Virus record (IMG/VR): IMGVR_UViG_3300010162_000393
Span: 64,001-128,000 of that record
Length of the DNA stretch: 64,000 nt
Origin: a virus
Lineage: Duplodnaviria; Caudoviricetes
Direction: 5' to 3' (one strand)
The notes beneath the pieces were generated by a model. The model was not told the origin of the DNA. It saw nothing but the letters and a program-made list of their open reading frames with translations, and ran no database searches. This document shows positions 24,740-57,286 of the stretch, piece after piece. The translations under genes were made by a program, and so were the position numbers. Position 1 is the stretch's first letter. Each line of letters opens with the position of its first letter.

Positions 24740-25792
24740 TTAATTATATAATTGATTTCTCATTTCAACTAAAACTCTTTCAATAAATTCAACATCCGGT
24801 GTTTCTTGTAATGTACATTTTTCGTATAGGATATCTATTTCTTCTATCATTGTTTTTGCACGACTTACCAAATCATCATATTCAGCATCACCACGACGTA
24901 TTGATAATAATTCTTCACGATTTGGAACACGAACAATTAGATTTCCATTAGATAATATTTCTTTGGATTGTTGTAACAACCTGATAGTATGACACATATT
25001 CTTAGCATCGTATCGTTTTCCATGTGACATAGTATTATTAAATCTTACTTCACTTCGTTTATCAACCCACTCCCAATATTCTTTATATTCTTTACAATAT
25101 GCTGAATATCCGTCTTTATTAAAATATAATCTATTATCTGGTGTTATCCATTTAGGTATAGAACTAAGAGCAACTTCATTAGCATCTGGACATGACATTA
25201 TTCCTCTGAATTTGTCTTTATAATAATACAAATCGTAAATGTCCTTCATATTATTTATGGAAGATAATCCACAATCTTCTTGTTTGTATCCGTAATTTGA
25301 CAACCATGTGTTAAGTGATACAGATCCGCCATTATCATTAAGAACATAACAAAAATCAAGTATATTTTTTCTTTCCTTATCCATTGGGTTTAGGATTTTT
25401 TTGTTCAACCCTCTCGCCTTTTTAATTTGAGATATGGCGTATCCGGCAAACGTGTTTTTACACAACTTTGATAAAAACATATCAACCGTAAGATTATCCA
25501 TAATATTATTTCGATACAATATACAATCTTCTGGTGTTGCTAACAATTCCAACATATTAGGATTGTTTTTTAATAATAGTTCAACGAATCTCCCAATCTC
25601 ATAATATACTTTGTCGTTTTTTTCGTCTTCTATTTGTTGGGTATAAGTCAAACCATATAACTTATCTTTTGGTAAATAAAAAACACCTCGAATATCTGTA
25701 TCCGATTCAGGGGTATCTATTCCATATGCTTTACTACCGCTGATACATTCAAACAGTAAAAGGTTATTTTTTTTTATGTATTCTATCGACAT
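24740..25792 (-). CDS. Nucleotidyltransferase (Nuc-transf / YcgL-like family)
   Basis: SGSKAYG..TPESDTDIRGV, NNPN.LELL, YDAKN..H.IRLL. Confidence 0.85.
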   Translation of the reverse strand: MSIEYIKKNNLLLFECISGSKAYGIDTPESDTDIRGVFYLPKDKLYGLTYTQQIEDEKNDKVYYEIGRFVELLLKNNPNMLELLATPEDCILYRNNIMDNLTVDMFLSKLCKNTFAGYAISQIKKARGLNKKILNPMDKERKNILDFCYVLNDNGGSVSLNTWLSNYGYKQEDCGLSSINNMKDIYDLYYYKDKFRGIMSCPDANEVALSSIPKWITPDNRLYFNKDGYSAYCKEYKEYWEWVDKRSEVRFNNTMSHGKRYDAKNMCHTIRLLQQSKEILSNGNLIVRVPNREELLSIRRGDAEYDDLVSRAKTMIEEIDILYEKCTLQETPDVEFIERVLVEMRNQLYN

Positions 25793-25806
25793 TTTTTGTT
25801 TAATAT

Positions 25807-26184
25807 TTGAAATATACTATATTCGATTATATTTTTGATATGAGTGGTTTTGTTTATCTAATACTTGAATGGGATAAAATTGAAGAAAACCTTGTCCCAA
25901 GTAAAATAGGTGTTACCAGAGGGTGTATTGAAAAACGTATCAAAAAACTCCAAACCGGAAATACCTCTAATCTACATCTCTTCACACATTTCAAATCTGA
26001 ACATCCGTTTAGGTTAGAAAAAATGTTACACAACCATTACCAAAAATATAAAACAAATGGTGAATGGTTTAACCTACCAAATGAAACTGTATTAGGATTC
26101 AAAACCATTTGTGAAGAAAAAGAAGAACTTATTAAATTTCTACTAAAAGAAAACCATTTTTTCGGAAAAAAAACAGGTTTCTAA
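25807..26184 (+). CDS. GIY-YIG superfamily (T5orf172/Mug113-like) nuclease
   Basis: GFVYLI, KIGVT, R.KKLQTGN, LE..LH, GEWF; start probably the internal Met at 25840. Confidence 0.8.
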   Translation: MKYTIFDYIFDMSGFVYLILEWDKIEENLVPSKIGVTRGCIEKRIKKLQTGNTSNLHLFTHFKSEHPFRLEKMLHNHYQKYKTNGEWFNLPNETVLGFKTICEEKEELIKFLLKENHFFGKKTGF

Positions 26185-26209
26185 TTTATGATTTTCCGCA
26201 AACATACCC

Positions 26210-27403
26210 CTAAAAGTTATTTGTTTTTAGAATTGACGCTTCAACGGGTTCGTAACCTCTTCCCTCCACGTCCACTACCCCCCACATCGGGGGTGATATA
26301 CCTATATTCCTTATGTTTATGGAAGCGTTAAAATCCCTGTCATGTAAAATGCTACACGAAGGACATATCCACTCCCTTACACGTAAATCCTTTACCTCAA
26401 CATTCTTATAACCACACCTGTTACACAACTGCGAGGAAGCAACAAACCTACCAATCTTGATAAGATTCTTACCTTGCCACTCACTTTTGTATCCCAACTG
26501 CCGTACAAACTCACTCCAACTTACCGACTGAATACTTCGCGCAAGTTTGTGGTTTTTGACCATTCCGCTTACGTTCAAATCCTCAATACAAATGGTGTCG
26601 TAATTATCCAACAAATACGTGGACAAATTATGCAACCAATGGTTTCGTTGAAATGTGATTTTTTGGTGAATTTTTGCAACCTTCAACCTTTGCTTTTCTC
26701 TACGATGACTTCCTTTTTGTCTTCGACACAACACCTTTTGGGCGTGTGCTAAACGTAAATGAGTCTTTTCAAGAAATTTTGGGTTTCCAAAACATTCACC
26801 ATTTGAGGTAACAGCAAATTCCTTAATTCCCAAGTCAATACCTATGGTTTTATTAGAATCTTCCACTTTGGTTTTCGGTGGAATTGGTTCTAGCGTATCG
26901 CATAGGATACTTACGAAATAATAACCTGCCTGTGTTTTTGATACTGTCATAGACTTGATTTTTCCTTTTGGGAGTCTTGACAATATCACTACTATATTTC
27001 CACATTTTCCTAATCTTACGGTGGATTTCTCCACGTTCAGGTTGAAACAATCTGGAAATGTACAAGTTTGTTTGTTACATTTTTTCTTATAATTTGGGTA
27101 TCCTGCTGGTTTCCCTTGTTTTACATTTCTGAAAAAATTGTTGTATGCTGAATCGACGTTGTTCAGAGTAACGTTCAGGGTATGTGCGGTGGTGTCTTTC
27201 AACCATTCATGTTCTAACGTTAATTCGTTTCGCAACATTTTTCCCAAATCGAAAGAAGATAATGACTTCTTTTCAGTTTCCCACAACGTTTTCTTTTTGT
27301 TCACTGCCCAATTATAGATAAACCGAGAACAACCAAAATGTTGTGCAAGGGCAACTTTTTGGTTATCGGTTGGGTATATTCTATATTTGAACGCCTTTAA
27401 CAT
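26210..27403 (-). CDS. tnpB: TnpB RNA-guided endonuclease (IS200/IS605 OrfB family)
   Basis: HTH MLKAFKYRIYP; RuvC D-E-D intact (GIDLG, IEDL, DRDFNA); Zn finger CNRC..CPSC. Confidence 0.95.
   Translation of the reverse strand: MLKAFKYRIYPTDNQKVALAQHFGCSRFIYNWAVNKKKTLWETEKKSLSSFDLGKMLRNELTLEHEWLKDTTAHTLNVTLNNVDSAYNNFFRNVKQGKPAGYPNYKKKCNKQTCTFPDCFNLNVEKSTVRLGKCGNIVVILSRLPKGKIKSMTVSKTQAGYYFVSILCDTLEPIPPKTKVEDSNKTIGIDLGIKEFAVTSNGECFGNPKFLEKTHLRLAHAQKVLCRRQKGSHRREKQRLKVAKIHQKITFQRNHWLHNLSTYLLDNYDTICIEDLNVSGMVKNHKLARSIQSVSWSEFVRQLGYKSEWQGKNLIKIGRFVASSQLCNRCGYKNVEVKDLRVREWICPSCSILHDRDFNASINIRNIGISPPMWGVVDVEGRGYEPVEASILKTNNF
26213..26300 (-). ncRNA. Putative omega-RNA 3' scaffold plus guide overlapping the tnpB 3' end (5' boundary unknown)
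   Basis: GC-rich hairpin CACCCCC-GATGT-GGGGGG and ...GAAGCGTCAA end (TCAA at 26233-26236) followed by 20 nt before the TIR. Confidence 0.5.
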
Positions 27404-27457
27404 ATTTCAAATTTACACTTTTTATACGATAGGGGTATTATTGCGGAAAATCATTTT

Positions 27458-28531
27458 CTAATTTCTGTAAAACAAAACATCATCCGCCTCAATTGGATAT
27501 GGAAAATCCATTTCCTTCATCATATTCATAATGGTATTAGGATGTACTTGTCCTTCCCTTCTATCAATATGGTTTTGTTTTGTGGTTTCATGATATTCAA
27601 TTGTTATGTGAGGATTATATGGGGATACCATTTGAATGAATTCGTCACGGTATTTTTTTCTTATAAAAAGATTATCTGAAACAAAGTTTTGTCTTCGTTC
27701 ACATAATTCTATTATCTGTTTATGTTCAACATGTGTCACCTTGTCTTCCTGAATTTTGTTCCCCTTTAATTTTCCACCATGTTCAACCATACCTAATTCC
27801 GCTCTAATAATGTCGCGTGATATTAGTTCAAACCCAAATTGTTTATATCGTCTTTCATATGCCGTTGTTTTTCCACCACCAGCAACTCCGCATAAAATTG
27901 TAATATAAAAACCAGATTCTTCTTTTGTTTCAATTTTTGGTTCGCAATTCCAAACACCTAATTGTTTAGCATAATCTTTTAATGTTTCGCAATGTTGAAT
28001 TTCATTTTCTTTATCAATGGATATTGCACCCATTACATCAAACAGATTAAGATAATATAACAAACGACAATCTGAATTGCGTGATATGTTGGTTACATTT
28101 TTTTCAATATCTTCCATTTTGAAACGCAAATATTTTGGTTTCATGTGGTGTTTTATCAACGAACATATTTTCTCTCTCAAAGGTAGTGGTTCATCCCACA
28201 ACATAAATCGTGTCAATCGCTCTCCTTCAATAGCATGATATGCTGCTGACCAGTTACCATCTTCTTTTAGTTTTGCAACTTTTCCTTTACCAATATCATG
28301 AAATAATGAGGCGGAAACCAAAACCAATTTTTCAAAATCTGAAAATTCTTTTGGATTTTGTTTCAAATAATCTTGACACGCTTTTACCACCATTTTGGTA
28401 TGTACCATTGTACTACCCTCCTGATGCCATTCACTATGATATCCACCTTCATTGAGACGTTGAAATTCTGGTATTTCTTCTACCAAGTTCCAATTAACCT
28501 TTGTATTACCAATTATTAATCTATCTAACAT
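27458..28531 (-). CDS. HD-domain phosphohydrolase fused to an AAA_33 polynucleotide-kinase-like domain
   Basis: HQEG..HT, LFHDIGK, HHM, D; C-terminal GVAGGGKT...SRDIIR. Confidence 0.82.
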   Translation of the reverse strand: MLDRLIIGNTKVNWNLVEEIPEFQRLNEGGYHSEWHQEGSTMVHTKMVVKACQDYLKQNPKEFSDFEKLVLVSASLFHDIGKGKVAKLKEDGNWSAAYHAIEGERLTRFMLWDEPLPLREKICSLIKHHMKPKYLRFKMEDIEKNVTNISRNSDCRLLYYLNLFDVMGAISIDKENEIQHCETLKDYAKQLGVWNCEPKIETKEESGFYITILCGVAGGGKTTAYERRYKQFGFELISRDIIRAELGMVEHGGKLKGNKIQEDKVTHVEHKQIIELCERRQNFVSDNLFIRKKYRDEFIQMVSPYNPHITIEYHETTKQNHIDRREGQVHPNTIMNMMKEMDFPYPIEADDVLFYRN

Positions 28532-41596: not shown

Positions 41597-43582
41597 ATGA
41601 TTAATAATTTTTTAGAAAGTGGTCTGGTTGGTAATATTGCATGGAACCAGGTCTCTGAACAAAGGAAAAAGATATCTGAAACTTGGGAAAAACTTGGTTT
41701 TACCGAAAACTTGCAAGGTGTTTTGAAAGAAAATATTTCGATGTTGTATGAAAATACAGCTCGTGCTCTTATTCACGAAGCAACAGATGCTACAAACTCC
41801 GGTTCTTTCGTAACCGTTGTATTTCCGCTTATTAGACGTGTATTCAGCAAATTACTTGCTAATGACATCGTTTCTATTCAGGCGTTGAATTTACCTATTG
41901 GTAAATTGTTCTATATTAAACCCGTTACCTCTGAAAGAGAATGGGAAAACCTCGATGGTGATGGTAATGTATTATCCGGTAGCAACGCAAAACATACTGG
42001 TTTAATGGGTTACAATAGACATGATCGTAATTTTCAAAATCCGGGCAAAGCAGTTTTTGATCCTCTAACCAATACGTTTAGTGGACAAAAACAAGGTTTA
42101 TACAACAACCGTTTTTATCTTCCTGATGAAGTTATCACAGGTACACCAAGTAACGAAAAACCGATACCAACTTGGCAAACTCTCGACGCTGATAACACTT
42201 TTCCTGCTGATCCTACAAATCTTGATGATCGTAACAAACCAGTCGTAACTCGTTATATGCAGACTTCTCTGTATGATTTGTTCTATGACGAATTCTTGTA
42301 TGACCACTCAAAAGGACGTGCTTGGGTTAAAATTTCCGATATGGTAGAAGTTGTTCAATTGAATAACAAAAGAACTTTTGATCTTCTTGCTCCCGGTGCT
42401 GATTTTATTGAATCTCGTGAAGATGGTTCAATCCGAAACGCTATTTTGAAAATCAAAGGTTTTAACAACTACAACGCAGGTCTGTTAATTGGTCCTGACG
42501 GAGACGAAATGGATACCGAAACTTTCCTTGCTTCGTTGAAAGTAATTACTAAAAACGCTATTGCTGATACCAGTGCTAGTGGTTATTCGGAATTTAAAGA
42601 AAATGAAAATCTTCCTATCAGGTTGTTGCCACAAAAGTATGGTAAAGCTATCGTAGAAAGAGATAATTTCTGCGGTGCTGACGGTACAATGTATGTTGAA
42701 GTAGACTTCAAAAAACCTACCGTTAATCATGGTATAACCGTTGATGGTTATATTGGTATTGACCCGGCTAATAAAGTTGGTGATGTTGAATTCTACGTAT
42801 GTTGGATACAATATGATAGTCTTGAACTTGAAACCGAAATCGGTGAAGTATCTTTCCAAATTGACAGTGTTACCATTGCAGTTGAAGAACGTAAATTGAG
42901 AAGCACATGGTCGCCTGAACAGGCACAAGACGTTGCTGCTTTCCATAACATTGACGCAGAAGCAGAACTTACCAGCCTTTTGGCACAACAAGTTTCTGTT
43001 GAAATTGACCGTGAAATTCTCCGCGACCTTAAAACCGCTGCTCCTTGGCAACTGAGCTGGGACTTCAACGGTTGGAGACGTACTGCTACAACAAGTACTA
43101 ACTACACACAGAAGGATTGGAATCAGGAACTGATTACGAAAATTAATCAAATTTCCGCACAGATTAACAAGACTTGTTTAATGGGTGGTGCTAACTTCAT
43201 CGTTGTTTCTCCGGAAATCAGTGCAGTTTTCGATAACCTTGAATACTTCCACGCTACTAACGCCGCTCCTGGTGAAGAGGAATACTCTTTGGGTATGGAA
43301 AAAGTTGGTAATTTGAGTGGTCGTTATCAAGTGTATGTAGACCCTTATTCACGCCATTGGACGCTTTTGGTTGGACACAAAGGAAAAAGTATGTTGGACA
43401 CAGGTTACATATATGCTCCGTATGTGCCTCTGCAGCTGACACCAACTCTATTTAATCCGTTTAACGCTGCGCCTGTAAAATTTATAATGACGCGCTACGC
43501 AAAGAAAGTTGTTAATAACAAATTCTATGGATTGGTAAAGGTTCATGGTTTAACTACTTGGGATACCAACGAATTGAGATAA
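41597..43582 (+). CDS. gp23: Major capsid protein (T4 gp23-like)
   Basis: PLIRRVF..LLANDIVSIQ, RKLRSTWSPEQAQD...DAEAELTSLL...EIDREIL, GYIYAPYVPL, MTRYA. Confidence 0.95.
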   Translation: MINNFLESGLVGNIAWNQVSEQRKKISETWEKLGFTENLQGVLKENISMLYENTARALIHEATDATNSGSFVTVVFPLIRRVFSKLLANDIVSIQALNLPIGKLFYIKPVTSEREWENLDGDGNVLSGSNAKHTGLMGYNRHDRNFQNPGKAVFDPLTNTFSGQKQGLYNNRFYLPDEVITGTPSNEKPIPTWQTLDADNTFPADPTNLDDRNKPVVTRYMQTSLYDLFYDEFLYDHSKGRAWVKISDMVEVVQLNNKRTFDLLAPGADFIESREDGSIRNAILKIKGFNNYNAGLLIGPDGDEMDTETFLASLKVITKNAIADTSASGYSEFKENENLPIRLLPQKYGKAIVERDNFCGADGTMYVEVDFKKPTVNHGITVDGYIGIDPANKVGDVEFYVCWIQYDSLELETEIGEVSFQIDSVTIAVEERKLRSTWSPEQAQDVAAFHNIDAEAELTSLLAQQVSVEIDREILRDLKTAAPWQLSWDFNGWRRTATTSTNYTQKDWNQELITKINQISAQINKTCLMGGANFIVVSPEISAVFDNLEYFHATNAAPGEEEYSLGMEKVGNLSGRYQVYVDPYSRHWTLLVGHKGKSMLDTGYIYAPYVPLQLTPTLFNPFNAAPVKFIMTRYAKKVVNNKFYGLVKVHGLTTWDTNELR

Positions 43583-43669: not shown

Positions 43670-45922
43670 TCAGGTTGGATATACTTTATTGTTATATTCA
43701 TACACAACATTTCCGTTGTCGTACATTTCTACAAATCCCTCCAACTTCATTATCTCACGATTATCCATACCCTTCGGATATTTTACCAAATCATCATCAC
43801 CTATAAATCGACTGGCACCTTTGAATCGTAAAGAGTTGTTGGTTATTGTTCTCCCCGTTTTCAAATGAATCCAATAACCAGCAGGTTTATTATATTTTAC
43901 AAATTTGAAATCATCAAGATGTATGTTGTCGCCGCCAAGATTCAAATTCAAATAACAAATACAACTCGTTGGGTTATACGTGGTTTTGAAATAATTCCAC
44001 ATTTTGGATACACCACCCTGAATAGTTATGTTCGGTTTGAAACATAACCGGACTAATTCCCATTCATATTTCTTGTTGAAACGCGGTTGCCCGAATGTCA
44101 TTACACCAACTAATTCATTTTCATAAAATAAAGCAATACAATACTTCTGTCCATTTGATTTGTTTTGAATGTGGTGTTCATCTAAAAACAGGTTACACTC
44201 TTTCTGTGGTATTTCTTTTATTTCACATTTTCTTGCGCCAATTTTTATTTTGTTTTTACCTATTTTTGAACGGATTATGTTTAACATCTTTGTTTCGGAT
44301 ATATTATCATATATTGAAATCAATGTATATCCATTATCTTTTGCTAATTTCCATTTATTAAAATGATAATCAGGTGTAATTGGAACATTTTCTGTTGTAA
44401 ACCCTCTTATGAATCCGTAACCATACGTTGAGTTATGTGTAAATGTTGGATTTATTTCTATTAAAAGATTTTCTATTTTTAAATCATATGAAAAATTATT
44501 AATACGAAATTCTTCTTCACATTTAATATTAAAATGTTTTTTTATTAAATTCAGCCATTTCAAATTTATCTTGGAGGTTACATTTGACGCTTTTTGGTAC
44601 TTTTCTGTTAAACAATAATGTGGTACACCGTATCTTTCAAGATTGGTTTGTATACGTTTTTCTTGAAATTCTGGTACTAATAGAACATGTTTTTCTCCAT
44701 ACCTTTCAAGATTAGTTTGTTGCATTTTTTTAACAACATCTTTATTTTTAACAGGATTTGGTACACCATATTTTTTAAGATTAGTTTCTTTTATTTTTTC
44801 TTTAATTTCTGTTGATTGAAATGGGTTTTCACATCCGAATTTTTTAATAAAAGTTTGTACGTTTTTTTTCTTTATTACGTCTATTATTTCCGGAACTTGA
44901 AAAGGGTTTTTGTATCCATACCTTTCAATATAACTTTTTTCTTTTTTGTTCTTTATATCTTCTGATTTTGATACATGTGAAACCCCATATTTTTTGATAT
45001 TGGTTTCTATTGTTTTTATTTTAAAAGAACATTTACTACAAAAACATGTTTTTTGTAATTCTAACGCACTGATTGTTTTTTCTATAATTTTACCACATTC
45101 TTGGCATTTACAAGGTAATTTACTTCTTTTATTAACATAGTTATTCCAATCCAAAACATATGGAAATTCTTCTTTATTTATAATATGTGTTTTTGTTTTT
45201 GTTGCATTTACTATACCACATTTACGACAAAAACAAGTGTTTTTCCTATCTAATAAATCAATTGGTTTATATGTTGTATTTCCACACCCATCACATTTAC
45301 ATGGAAGTTTTGTTGAAATTGTTTGATAACCGTTCCATTCTAAAACCATTGGGTAATCTTCTTTGTTAATAATTCTCTTTCCGTGTTTCTCTATTTTATT
45401 TTTCACTTTCTTATTTTGAACAGTTTCTGATTGAGATGGATTTTCAACCCCATACTTTTCTTTCATAGTATTTTTGAAATCTTCTGATTGATAATAATTT
45501 TCAACGCCGTATATTTTAGTATTTGTTTGTTTTCTCTTTGTTGAAGTGCAATTTTCACAAACACTACCACTATTGCTTCTTCTTTTACATCTATCTATCA
45601 TGTAAATACTTCTATTAAAAGAATTACCACAAATATCACATTTACATGGTAGTGGTGTTTGGGTGTTTTCGTAACCACTCCAATCTAAAACCATTGGGTA
45701 ATCCTCATGTTTTGGTTCCCTTGTTCTATTTTTACCACCGTTTTTATGACCACATTCACGACAAAAACAAGTTTTCCTATAATCCAAATCATTAATACTT
45801 CTAAAAATAACTTCATCACAAGTTTCACATTTGCACGGTAACTTGCTTTTTGTATTTTTAAAATTACTCCAATCTAATACCATTGGATAATCTTCGTGAT
45901 TTATTTCTTTCTTTTTAAGCAT
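43670..45922 (-). CDS. Hef-like homing endonuclease: Zn-ribbon and TNxxKYG repeats + PD-(D/E)XK + GNAT-like C-terminus
   Basis: 4x (H/K)EDYPMVLDW..LPCKC repeats; TNLKKYG/TNLERYG repeats; SYDL...LIEIN; IGARKC...LVGVMTF...WELVR. Confidence 0.75.
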   Translation of the reverse strand: MLKKKEINHEDYPMVLDWSNFKNTKSKLPCKCETCDEVIFRSINDLDYRKTCFCRECGHKNGGKNRTREPKHEDYPMVLDWSGYENTQTPLPCKCDICGNSFNRSIYMIDRCKRRSNSGSVCENCTSTKRKQTNTKIYGVENYYQSEDFKNTMKEKYGVENPSQSETVQNKKVKNKIEKHGKRIINKEDYPMVLEWNGYQTISTKLPCKCDGCGNTTYKPIDLLDRKNTCFCRKCGIVNATKTKTHIINKEEFPYVLDWNNYVNKRSKLPCKCQECGKIIEKTISALELQKTCFCSKCSFKIKTIETNIKKYGVSHVSKSEDIKNKKEKSYIERYGYKNPFQVPEIIDVIKKKNVQTFIKKFGCENPFQSTEIKEKIKETNLKKYGVPNPVKNKDVVKKMQQTNLERYGEKHVLLVPEFQEKRIQTNLERYGVPHYCLTEKYQKASNVTSKINLKWLNLIKKHFNIKCEEEFRINNFSYDLKIENLLIEINPTFTHNSTYGYGFIRGFTTENVPITPDYHFNKWKLAKDNGYTLISIYDNISETKMLNIIRSKIGKNKIKIGARKCEIKEIPQKECNLFLDEHHIQNKSNGQKYCIALFYENELVGVMTFGQPRFNKKYEWELVRLCFKPNITIQGGVSKMWNYFKTTYNPTSCICYLNLNLGGDNIHLDDFKFVKYNKPAGYWIHLKTGRTITNNSLRFKGASRFIGDDDLVKYPKGMDNREIMKLEGFVEMYDNGNVVYEYNNKVYPT

Positions 45923-45934
45923 ATACCCTAATAA

Positions 45935-47425
45935 AATTACAATAAAATTTCATGATCATTCCAACATTTTTTGATTTTTCCATATATAACAATATCTCCC
46001 CCCATCATATATCCTGAATACCTTTCCATCATCGTATAATTGCTTCATCTCTTTATATATTTTTGGTTGCCTTTTTTTGAATATCAAACCACTTTTGTAC
46101 ACCCAATCATATCTAGATGGATTTATATGTTTTAATTCAAATCCCATTATTTCATATGATTTACCCGTAAATTTTGACCTATCTACGTATGCCACAACGC
46201 TTTTAGGGTTATATTTTCTTATGAAATATTTGAATACTTTTGATTTACCACCAATAACAGAATACCCTTCTTTACACACCTCTCTTTTTACTTCCCATTC
46301 TGCCGCAGGGGTTTGTGTAAAAATGTTTTTTGAAATTTTATTCAATAACATTACTAATACCAATTCTGATTTATGAAAAAGACCGATATAATTACTAGCA
46401 GTAACCGATTTTTGTTGATGGTATTCTAACAATGGTTTAGCGGTTTTAAGATCTATTTCCTGAATTGTGCAATCTCGTGCAAACACTTTGTGCTCACATA
46501 ACCCCAACTGCGCTTTTATATATGATTTTATTTGTTCTCGATTATTCAACCATTCGTAATCCCATACATATATAAGTCTAATATCATTATTCTGACAAAC
46601 TGTAATTTTATCATAATGATAATTTTTATGTTTAGCAATATCATTATGATAATATGTTCCATTATATTCAAATGCTATTTGTTTTGAAGGTATCAAAATA
46701 TCTATTTCTATACCAGAAACTTTTTTATTTTCTACAATATCAAAACCACAAGATATGATAAAATTTTTCAATTCATTTTCTCCGGTTGAAGTTGATTGTT
46801 GGCATCTTCGACACATTCTACTACCTCTTCTATCAAACATATTATTAATAGCGGTTTCAAAAAATTCACCACATTCTACACATTTAATTTCTATATTTGT
46901 AGTACGTCTTTTTTCATAAACAAATGGTTTAAAAATTACACCAATATGTTTAAGTCTTTTTTCAATCTCTTCTTGTGATAAATTTTGGTTTTGACTTATT
47001 TTTTTAATACCACACGATTTACATAATGTATGTCCGTTAATTATTTCAATAAACTTGTTTTGTTTTAATTTACCACATCCGGTGCATTTATATTCTATAA
47101 TAGTTTCATTATTTTGATAAACAAATTGGTTGAAAATAATAGATTTCTTCAACAGTTCTTGTTCTGCTTCATTTTGTGTTCTCTTTTTTTTACCGGCACA
47201 TGCTTTGCATTTAGAATGTCCATTCAAAACATGTACTATCTGACTTTCTTTAATATTGTTACATATTGGGCAGTAATATGATATTTTTTGATGCATCTCA
47301 ACATATGTAAATGGTAGGAAAACAACGTGTTCTTTCAACAGGTTTTCTATTTCTTCTTGAGAGTATTTAATATTTCTTCTTTTTAACATATGTTAAAAAT
47401 AATTATAATAAAATTTTCTGATCAT
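45935..47425. repeat. 25-bp imperfect direct repeats flanking the 45956-47389 gene
   Basis: AATTACAATAAAATTTCATGATCAT (45935-45959) vs AATTATAATAAAATTTTCTGATCAT (47401-47425), 22/25. Confidence 0.6.
45956..47389 (-). CDS. Hef-like homing endonuclease: Zn ribbons + PD-(D/E)XK + GNAT-like C-terminus
   Basis: CxxC repeats; STGE..L, EIDI, AFEYNGTYYH, FARDC, YVDRS, IYDGG. Confidence 0.78.
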   Translation of the reverse strand: MLKRRNIKYSQEEIENLLKEHVVFLPFTYVEMHQKISYYCPICNNIKESQIVHVLNGHSKCKACAGKKKRTQNEAEQELLKKSIIFNQFVYQNNETIIEYKCTGCGKLKQNKFIEIINGHTLCKSCGIKKISQNQNLSQEEIEKRLKHIGVIFKPFVYEKRRTTNIEIKCVECGEFFETAINNMFDRRGSRMCRRCQQSTSTGENELKNFIISCGFDIVENKKVSGIEIDILIPSKQIAFEYNGTYYHNDIAKHKNYHYDKITVCQNNDIRLIYVWDYEWLNNREQIKSYIKAQLGLCEHKVFARDCTIQEIDLKTAKPLLEYHQQKSVTASNYIGLFHKSELVLVMLLNKISKNIFTQTPAAEWEVKREVCKEGYSVIGGKSKVFKYFIRKYNPKSVVAYVDRSKFTGKSYEIMGFELKHINPSRYDWVYKSGLIFKKRQPKIYKEMKQLYDDGKVFRIYDGGRYCYIWKNQKMLE

Positions 47426-56890: not shown

Positions 56891-57286
56891 ATGCAAAATT
56901 TCTTCATAAATAAAGATAGTATTCTACCAACTCTTGAAATGAAATTAATAGAACAAGGTCGTGTTGGTTCCGATGCACATGTATCATTTTATAATGCACT
57001 TCAAAATGCTGATATATTTTTCACTATGATTGATGTTGATACAGGTGTTACAAAAGTAGCGCATCAACCTGCTATTCTAATAGAATCTGATGGTTGTACC
57101 GATCAATTTAACATAGCATACGAATGGAAAAAACGGGACGTATCACGTCCCGGAAAATACAGAGGTCAATTTGAAATTATATTCTCTGATGATAATATAC
57201 CAGAGTTCGCAAGTAAGAACTTAGTGGTTCCTATACATAACGAACTTATGATAAATGTTACCGAAGGATCAATCAAAAAACACTAA
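56891..57286 (+). CDS. BppU-like baseplate-associated protein
   Basis: FFINKDS.LP.L...YEW...D...G.YRGQFEI.F. Confidence 0.6.
   Translation: MQNFFINKDSILPTLEMKLIEQGRVGSDAHVSFYNALQNADIFFTMIDVDTGVTKVAHQPAILIESDGCTDQFNIAYEWKKRDVSRPGKYRGQFEIIFSDDNIPEFASKNLVVPIHNELMINVTEGSIKKH

Follow-up and report, generated by a model that had tools for sequence, protein, structure and literature searches.

A tnpB gene within a probable transposase-less DDE-type transposon of a large termite-gut phage

TnpB, the ancestor of Cas12, is thought to persist by repairing the scarless excision of IS200/IS605 and IS607 elements. How does such a gene come to lie between inverted repeats that are bordered by a target duplication, the anatomy of DDE-type transposons? 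The question is raised by a 1.27-kb element, here named E1, at positions 26187/8–27454/5 of a 64,000-nt stretch of viral DNA (positions 64,001–128,000 of IMG/VR record IMGVR_UViG_3300010162_000393; the whole stretch is called the window, the record G000). Its sole gene is tnpB. In our reading, to which we assign a probability of about 0.6, E1 is a non-autonomous DDE-type transposon that carries a complete TnpB gene together with its guide-RNA scaffold, while the transposase, most probably a member of the IS1595 family, is encoded elsewhere.

One repeat frame around two unrelated TnpBs

The inverted repeats of E1 (26188–26212 and 27430–27454) have 25-nt arms that are 92% complementary (23/25), and a perfect 10-bp direct repeat, TTTCTAATTT, adjoins the outside of both arms (26178–26187 and 27455–27464), just as the initial annotation had described. 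The arm at the tnpB 3' or guide-RNA end reads ATGATTTTCCGCAAACATACCCCTA on the plus strand; its counterpart at the 5' end of the gene reads, on the minus strand, ATGATTTTCCGCAATAATACCCCTA. The repeat motif, with up to three mismatches allowed, occurs in only these two places within the window, and none of 100 shuffled sequences reached two matches. Two convergent genes flank the element, one for a T5orf172/MUG113-domain protein (25807–26184, plus strand) and one for a polynucleotide-kinase-like HD + AAA_33 protein (27458–28531, minus strand; both assigned with Pfam). The TAA stop of the former lies inside the left copy of the direct repeat and the TAG stop of the latter inside the right copy, and the duplication keeps both frames intact. 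In silico removal of E1 restores CTAA, in which the two stops overlap; the same convergent layout, to which the initial annotation had also pointed, is found at 57283–57286. Its view that this is a real insertion of DDE-type anatomy, with inverted repeats and a target duplication, is thus borne out. The GC content is 0.376 within E1 versus 0.306 in the flanks, which we count toward a foreign origin.

The tnpB gene (26210–27403, minus strand) encodes 397 amino acids and matches the Pfam families HTH_OrfB_IS605, OrfB_IS605 and Cas12f1-like_TNB with E-values from 1e-19 to 6e-28. Residues 3–369 align with the solved structures of ISDra2 TnpB (E 4e-74), and those beyond ~370 represent read-through over the RNA scaffold. 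The RuvC residues D190, E274 and D357 and the zinc-finger cysteines C327, C330, C347 and C350 are all present and the protein looks catalytically intact, in agreement with the original description. The best homologues among 5.8 billion proteins are 45–50% identical and are named IS200/IS605 TnpB. E1 TnpB is also encoded on a 269-kb contig, and GTDB representative genomes contained neither a close relative of it nor a 25-mer from the E1 scaffold.

Both the protein and its RNA scaffold are of the lineage found in IS200/IS605 tnpB-only elements (the IS1341 group and PATE derivatives). Those elements, unlike E1, lack terminal inverted repeats as well as a duplication and have subterminal hairpins at either end. 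An IS200/IS605 element is ruled out here by the 25/26-bp inverted repeats, the abutting direct repeat and a left end of 26 nt without a hairpin. This leader (27404–27429, minus strand) separates the tnpB ATG from the repeat, and at its other end the gene has its stop codon within the inner edge of the opposite repeat. The leader contains a Bacteroidota-type -7 box (TAAATTTG, 27408–27415), its motif is unique in the genome record, and it has neither the length nor the structure of an IS200/IS605 left end, for which the initial annotation had likewise seen no room. No match to PF01797, the profile of the Y1 (HUH) TnpA, was found in the 137-kb record, i.e. in ~38% of the genome. An IS607 element is contradicted by the inverted repeats and the duplication, although no search for a resolvase domain was made. 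Only one open reading frame (ORF), tnpB, lies between the arms, and E1 has no transposase of its own, as had been stated.

The complete record (136,864 bp) contains exactly four copies of the repeat, which form two inverted pairs, each around one of its two OrfB_IS605 genes. The second element, E2, lies outside the window (G000:C1:13979–15308; 1501–2830 of locus L003), inserted beside an N6/N4 DNA methylase gene, and has the same inverted repeats as E1. Its TnpB has 412 amino acids, lacks the zinc finger, shows an altered RuvC-II motif and is only 24% identical to E1 TnpB; beyond the repeats the two elements share no sequence. A search for further copies with other target duplications, as the initial annotation had proposed, thus yielded the same repeats at a different duplicated site around an unrelated TnpB, an outcome in favour of its reading. 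No comparable inverted repeats surround 7 phage relatives of E1 TnpB or 33 of E2 TnpB (44–54% identity), and an E2-type relative present in three copies in one phage has ordinary asymmetric ends. As two unrelated TnpBs occupy the same repeats while their relatives lack them, it is the repeats that delimit the mobile unit, with the TnpB modules as its cargo.

One 162-kb phage contig (IMGVR_UViG_3300025858_000012; loci L029, L031, L037 and L067) has four copies of an E2-type TnpB element with asymmetric ends. Their right end reads ...GAATAAATAG, and ahead of it lies a hairpin with a stem that covaries from copy to copy; the motif GATACGAT recurs 14–25 nt past the end.

The duplication and the candidate transposase

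The ends of E1 can be read in two registers. Besides the perfect 10-bp repeat there is an exact 8-bp duplication, TTCTAATT (26179–26186 and 27456–27463), around 26-bp ends that include bases 26187 and 27455, with one mismatch at the repeat tip. E2, flanked by TTAGAAATA(A) and TTAGAAATA(T), has an exact 8-bp duplication, TAGAAATA, around 26-bp ends (AATGATT...), whereas in the 10-bp register its direct repeat agrees at only 9/10 positions. Because of the E2 duplication and of the comparison with IS1595-family ends given below, the 8-bp register is probably also the correct one for E1.

For this comparison a reference set of 21 IS1595-family elements was assembled, each with transposase, inverted repeats and an exact 8-bp duplication (8 from 301 Bacteroidota genomes, 13 from phage contigs); duplications of 8 bp are made by 21/21. 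When anchored at the tip in the 8-bp register, the E1/E2 end matches one reference (L108) at 16/25 and 15/25 positions and another (L155) at 15/25. For random 25-mers the probability of at least 15 matches is 5e-4 per comparison, and 42 comparisons were made. Three blocks are common to the E1/E2 ends and IS1595 ends at the same distance from the tip, namely T-R-A-T-T (positions 3–7), CGCAAA and TAC-CC. IS1595 transposases are encoded at no fewer than 557 loci in phage contigs, and the family is abundant in Bacteroidota too. The IS1595 family (transposase PF12762) includes members with passenger genes, and E1 resembles it in the 8-bp duplication of the proposed register and in the 15–16/25 agreement with two members. 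The initial annotation had proposed a duplication of ~10 bp and with it the IS4 or ISAs1 families; this probably reflects a register error of one base, the best match being IS1595-type ends with 8 bp.

Several observations weigh against this assignment. All 21 reference ends start with GG (family type GG-Y-R-A-T-T-A-T...TAC-CC), unlike those of E1 and E2, which start with AA, or with TA at one E1 end. The similarity is based on two reference elements only, and E1 taken alone fits a perfect 10-bp duplication better than one of 8 bp. An IS1595 profile found no match in the six frames of G000 or of G001, the one other IMG/VR genome with the repeat (see below). The autonomous element sharing these ends that the initial annotation had suggested looking for did not turn up either: no transposase-bearing element with the repeats (AATGATTTTCC... 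ends) was found in IMG/VR, the GTDB representative genomes or the JGI metagenomes, and repeat-pattern scans for such a partner gave the G001 copies, one copy on two short metagenome contigs (L011 and L018) and chance-like matches only.

An alternative, in line with the initial annotation, is that the resemblance to IS1595 is fortuitous and that the carrier belongs to another DDE family with true duplications of 9–10 bp, such as the IS4 group, ISAs1 or IS5/IS903-like elements. The perfect 10-bp repeat of E1, its ends starting with A(A)TG and the missing IS1595 transposase speak for such a carrier. Against it stand E2, which is exact at 8 bp and imperfect at 10, and the anchored identity to the two IS1595 ends, which is confined to the 8-bp register. 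Moreover, profiles for DDE_Tnp_1, rve and Transposase_mut (IS256-type) gave nothing over threshold in G000 or G001. The Y1_Tnp profile was likewise without a match over threshold in these records. We consider a carrier from another DDE family rather improbable, and an IS1595-like carrier, to which the ends point, somewhat better than an even bet. The ISAzo13 family was also tried as carrier and rejected, as the ends of Bacteroidota ISAzo13 elements (GGGCTGGCGAAAAAAT...) match at no more than 12/24 positions even with offsets allowed.

If a transposase of the IS1595 family is indeed responsible, it would be supplied from elsewhere, recognise the inverted repeats of E1, cut an AT-rich target (TTTCTAA-like in both elements) with a stagger of 8 bp and join the repeat ends to it; the ensuing duplication would leave both convergent neighbours with their stop codons.

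The 7-mer TTTCTAA/TTAGAAA is present in both insertion sites (window 26178–26187; L003 1491–1499), in opposite orientation relative to tnpB, and two further metagenome junctions read repeat + TTTCTAAT. A target preference of the transposase is a possible explanation of the shared TTTCTAA-like sites. At 4/110 phage-contig loci that encode an IS1595-family transposase (L169, L200, L150 and L215), a TnpB-like ORF is situated within a few kb of the transposase gene.

The guide RNA and its 3' end

A probable omega RNA (reRNA) scaffold overlaps the tnpB 3' end at 26235–26330 on the minus strand. Upstream of a stretch that is identical in G001 there is a hairpin in which the changes are compensatory. 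This 43-nt stretch (26231–26273), of which 26235–26273 belong to the scaffold and 26231–26234 to the spacer described next, appears as a unitig at roughly doubled depth in termite-gut runs. No Rfam family matched the E1 scaffold. When E1 is aligned with ordinary relatives, the ancestral boundary of the right end (...GCGTCAA) falls ~20 nt inside the repeat. Between the scaffold end (GCGTC) and the repeat there remains a spacer of ~22 nt (26213–26234, minus strand), the boundary of which was set by the alignment with relatives and by the G001 remnant.

This spacer suggests one further possibility, that of a built-in guide: the ~20 nt would fix one constant target other than the empty site, and the arrangement could have arisen by nested insertion of an IS605-type tnpB into an older inverted-repeat element. 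The scaffold end does coincide with the boundary of the right ends of ordinary relatives, the 18–22 nt that follow it differ between E1 and the G001 remnant while scaffold (43/43) and repeat (24/25) are conserved, and E2 has a similar spacing between scaffold and repeat.

The sequence of the spacer, though, is not what would be expected of a guide. In E1, in E2, whose scaffold is unrelated, and in the G001 remnant its first bases, (A)UUYCY-AAAAA, are an inverted and degenerate version of the repeat. In a predicted consensus fold of the three elements, the spacer pairs with UUUUU-GC-GGAAA of the repeat over 13 pairs and so forms a terminal hairpin. One C-G to A-U change is compensatory: the E1 repeat has G (in its AC variant) opposite a C in the spacer, the others U opposite A. 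In addition, the 137-kb record contains no target for the putative internal guide, and the left end leaves no room for an IS605 end, by which a nested intact IS605 element is excluded. A built-in guide is, in our judgement, quite unlikely.

Given the pairing predicted in three elements between the tnpB-side repeat and the ~20 nt beside it, we propose instead that the final hairpin of the guide RNA is probably made by this repeat and that the guide lies in the flank. A flank-derived guide is further favoured because the predicted fold matches the arrangement reported for Fanzor1, where the terminal inverted repeat (TIR) and the target-site duplication (TSD) are part of the scaffold and the RNA extends ~15 nt beyond (Yoon et al., 2023; PMC10711439). 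The strength of the hairpin counts against this proposal, as it is AU-rich and weak, with folding z-scores of −0.35 (E1), −2.4 (G001) and −1.45 (E2) from three sequences.

On this model of a terminal hairpin and a flank-derived guide, the omega RNA would end in a structure built from the transposon end and take its guide from the adjoining DNA, an arrangement that has been proposed for Fanzor1 and for DDE-linked TnpBs. TnpB would then cut unoccupied copies of the site, for instance in the genomes of co-infecting phages, and so skew the inheritance of the element. Cutting of unoccupied sites, including those in co-infecting phages, has been termed non-restorative homing (PMC13565253).

Relics of the repeat, related systems and the phage

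Repeat-pattern scans of IMG/VR revealed the repeat in one other genome only, G001 (IMGVR_UViG_3300010167_000015), a 135-kb termite-gut phage in which 19 ORFs show similarity to G000, with no synteny. G001 has no TnpB. It contains three solo copies of the repeat, all on the same strand and mostly just downstream of genes. One of them opens a remnant (131823–131930; L006 6937–7045), in which the solo repeat is followed by 85 nt of E1-like tnpB 3' end and scaffold, including the 43 bases identical to E1 and the hairpin with compensatory changes. A Band_7/SPFH gene follows in place of tnpB, and 1.6 kb from the remnant (L006 8527–8550) there is a 22-nt match to the promoter-like leader of E1. The remnant has the appearance of an E1-type element that has had its tnpB replaced, or of a guide-RNA gene retained without its nuclease. 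The other two solo copies (68818–68841 and 76656–76679; L078 and L079) are on the same strand as that of the remnant; one is situated just downstream of a 121-amino-acid ORF without family match, and one overlaps the stop of a 504-amino-acid ORF, with a weak inverted partial copy ~20 nt further on. A possible degenerate partner repeat beside the 68818 copy resembles a terminator hairpin more closely and was not counted.

Further junctions occur on short contigs from metagenomes. Two short JGI metagenome contigs (L011 1862–1900 and L018 712–750), which carry neither TnpB nor transposase, contain the repeat in a 24/25 copy that runs straight into a second, partial copy in direct orientation (AATGATTATCCGC...); its flank resembles the target of E1 (GTTTCATTTG versus GTTTCTAATTT). 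The further metagenome junctions, taken as 30-mers from loose contig ends, had no match in IMG/VR. No inverted pairs of the repeat were found in 401 Bacteroidota genomes.

Solo copies of this kind raise the question whether the 25-bp repeats might be a regulatory or RNA-processing motif of phages rather than transposon ends, with the direct repeats arising by coincidence. The uniform strand of the three G001 copies and their location mostly just downstream of genes would suit such a motif, as would the singleton near-matches (up to three mismatches) in the 401 Bacteroidota genomes, which number 44 against 11 for the reversed control (~4x). It would leave unexplained why exact direct repeats adjoin both arms in two independent elements, why removal of E1 restores both neighbouring genes, why GC content is raised inside E1 and why the motif is absent elsewhere in the window. 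A regulatory motif is accordingly very improbable, and we retain the interpretation of the repeats as transposon ends.

A point on the other side is that neither an empty site nor an excision product was seen, for which reason we infer mobility from the two insertions and some relics. No contig joining the flanks and skipping E1 occurred among the Logan contigs of four termite-gut runs for 25400–28300, a result that is uninformative either way as contigs drop rare variants.

More speculatively, one family of IS1595-like shells without transposase may circulate among unrelated termite-gut jumbo phages with exchangeable cargo, i.e. two unrelated TnpB lineages, a guide-RNA remnant and other genes, and each TnpB lineage may on its own have remodelled the 3' end of its guide RNA to pair with the shared transposon end. 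We hold this broader picture to be doubtful at present. If true, it would represent convergent RNA adaptation and a mirror, in bacterial viruses, of Fanzor capture, with the nuclease acting as a homing weapon between co-infecting phages.

The principle of the arrangement has precedents, and the novelty implied by the initial annotation was overstated in this respect; its term 'MITE-like' (miniature inverted-repeat transposable element) is also a loose one for a gene-carrying element of 1.27 kb. Altae-Tran et al. (2023, PNAS; PMC10691335) described DDE-associated TnpB branches, DDE-1 to DDE-6, bounded by inverted terminal repeats, together with solo TnpBs that share these ends. E1 agrees with them in that its TnpB lies between symmetrical inverted terminal repeats and that copies without transposase exist; in both E1 and E2 the tnpB 3' end is within 250 bp of an end with inverted terminal repeats, the feature by which DDE-associated TnpBs are recognised, and the stop codon is even located inside the repeat. 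E1 also differs from them. The DDE partners named in a review (ISL2, IS630 and IS1031; PMC13565253) make 2–3-bp duplications, as opposed to 8 (or 10) bp in E1 with its IS1595-resembling ends; two TnpB lineages without relation to each other share a single repeat frame in one phage; and the nearest relatives of E1 TnpB (45–50%) are ordinary IS200/IS605-type TnpBs. Our literature search found no paper linking IS1595 with TnpB cargo.

The second precedent is viral. Fanzor1 and Fanzor2* reside in cut-and-paste transposons of eukaryotes, among them a Fanzor-only TIR/TSD element that occurs in two copies in Spodoptera frugiperda ascovirus 1a (PMC10711439; Bao and Jurka, 2013, PMC3627910). Like this element, E1 is virus-borne, devoid of transposase, bounded by TIRs and a TSD, and has a TnpB-family nuclease as its sole gene. 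As in Fanzor1, the guide-RNA scaffold is predicted to include the transposon end, beyond which the guide would follow. It is distinguished from Fanzor elements by bacterial-type TnpB proteins and by its host, a tailed bacteriophage. Among the products of the window is an HK97-type major head protein (phrog_138, 2e-61), and the G000 phage is present in termite-gut metagenomes; by these signs the host genome is that of a large tailed phage, not of a eukaryotic virus. The large-phage location given originally is upheld by the head protein and by the size of the record, the 137 kb of which have an estimated completeness of 38%.

The arrangement is rare but its principle is already published, and E1 is a useful example rather than a new class. 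New here are E2 with the same repeats and an unrelated TnpB, the repeat-free relatives, the solo copies and remnant in G001, and the shared terminal hairpin. TnpB on DDE-type transposons puts the idea of persistence through repair of excision sites to the test, and would show guide RNAs adapting to foreign transposon ends, the step thought to have produced the eukaryotic Fanzors. Two unrelated TnpB-RNA modules in one repeat frame and one phage, each with a spacer predicted to pair with the repeat, constitute a compact natural experiment from which rules for the fusion of transposon end and scaffold could be derived, and the locus adds to the evidence for large phages as a reservoir of such TnpB/transposon hybrids.

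As to the surroundings of E1, IMG/VR contains no close relative of the HD-kinase protein next to it. Elsewhere in the window, directly downstream of the major head protein gene (41597–43582), two adjoining large genes (750 and 477 amino acids; 43670–47389, minus strand) match phage HNH/homing-endonuclease families.

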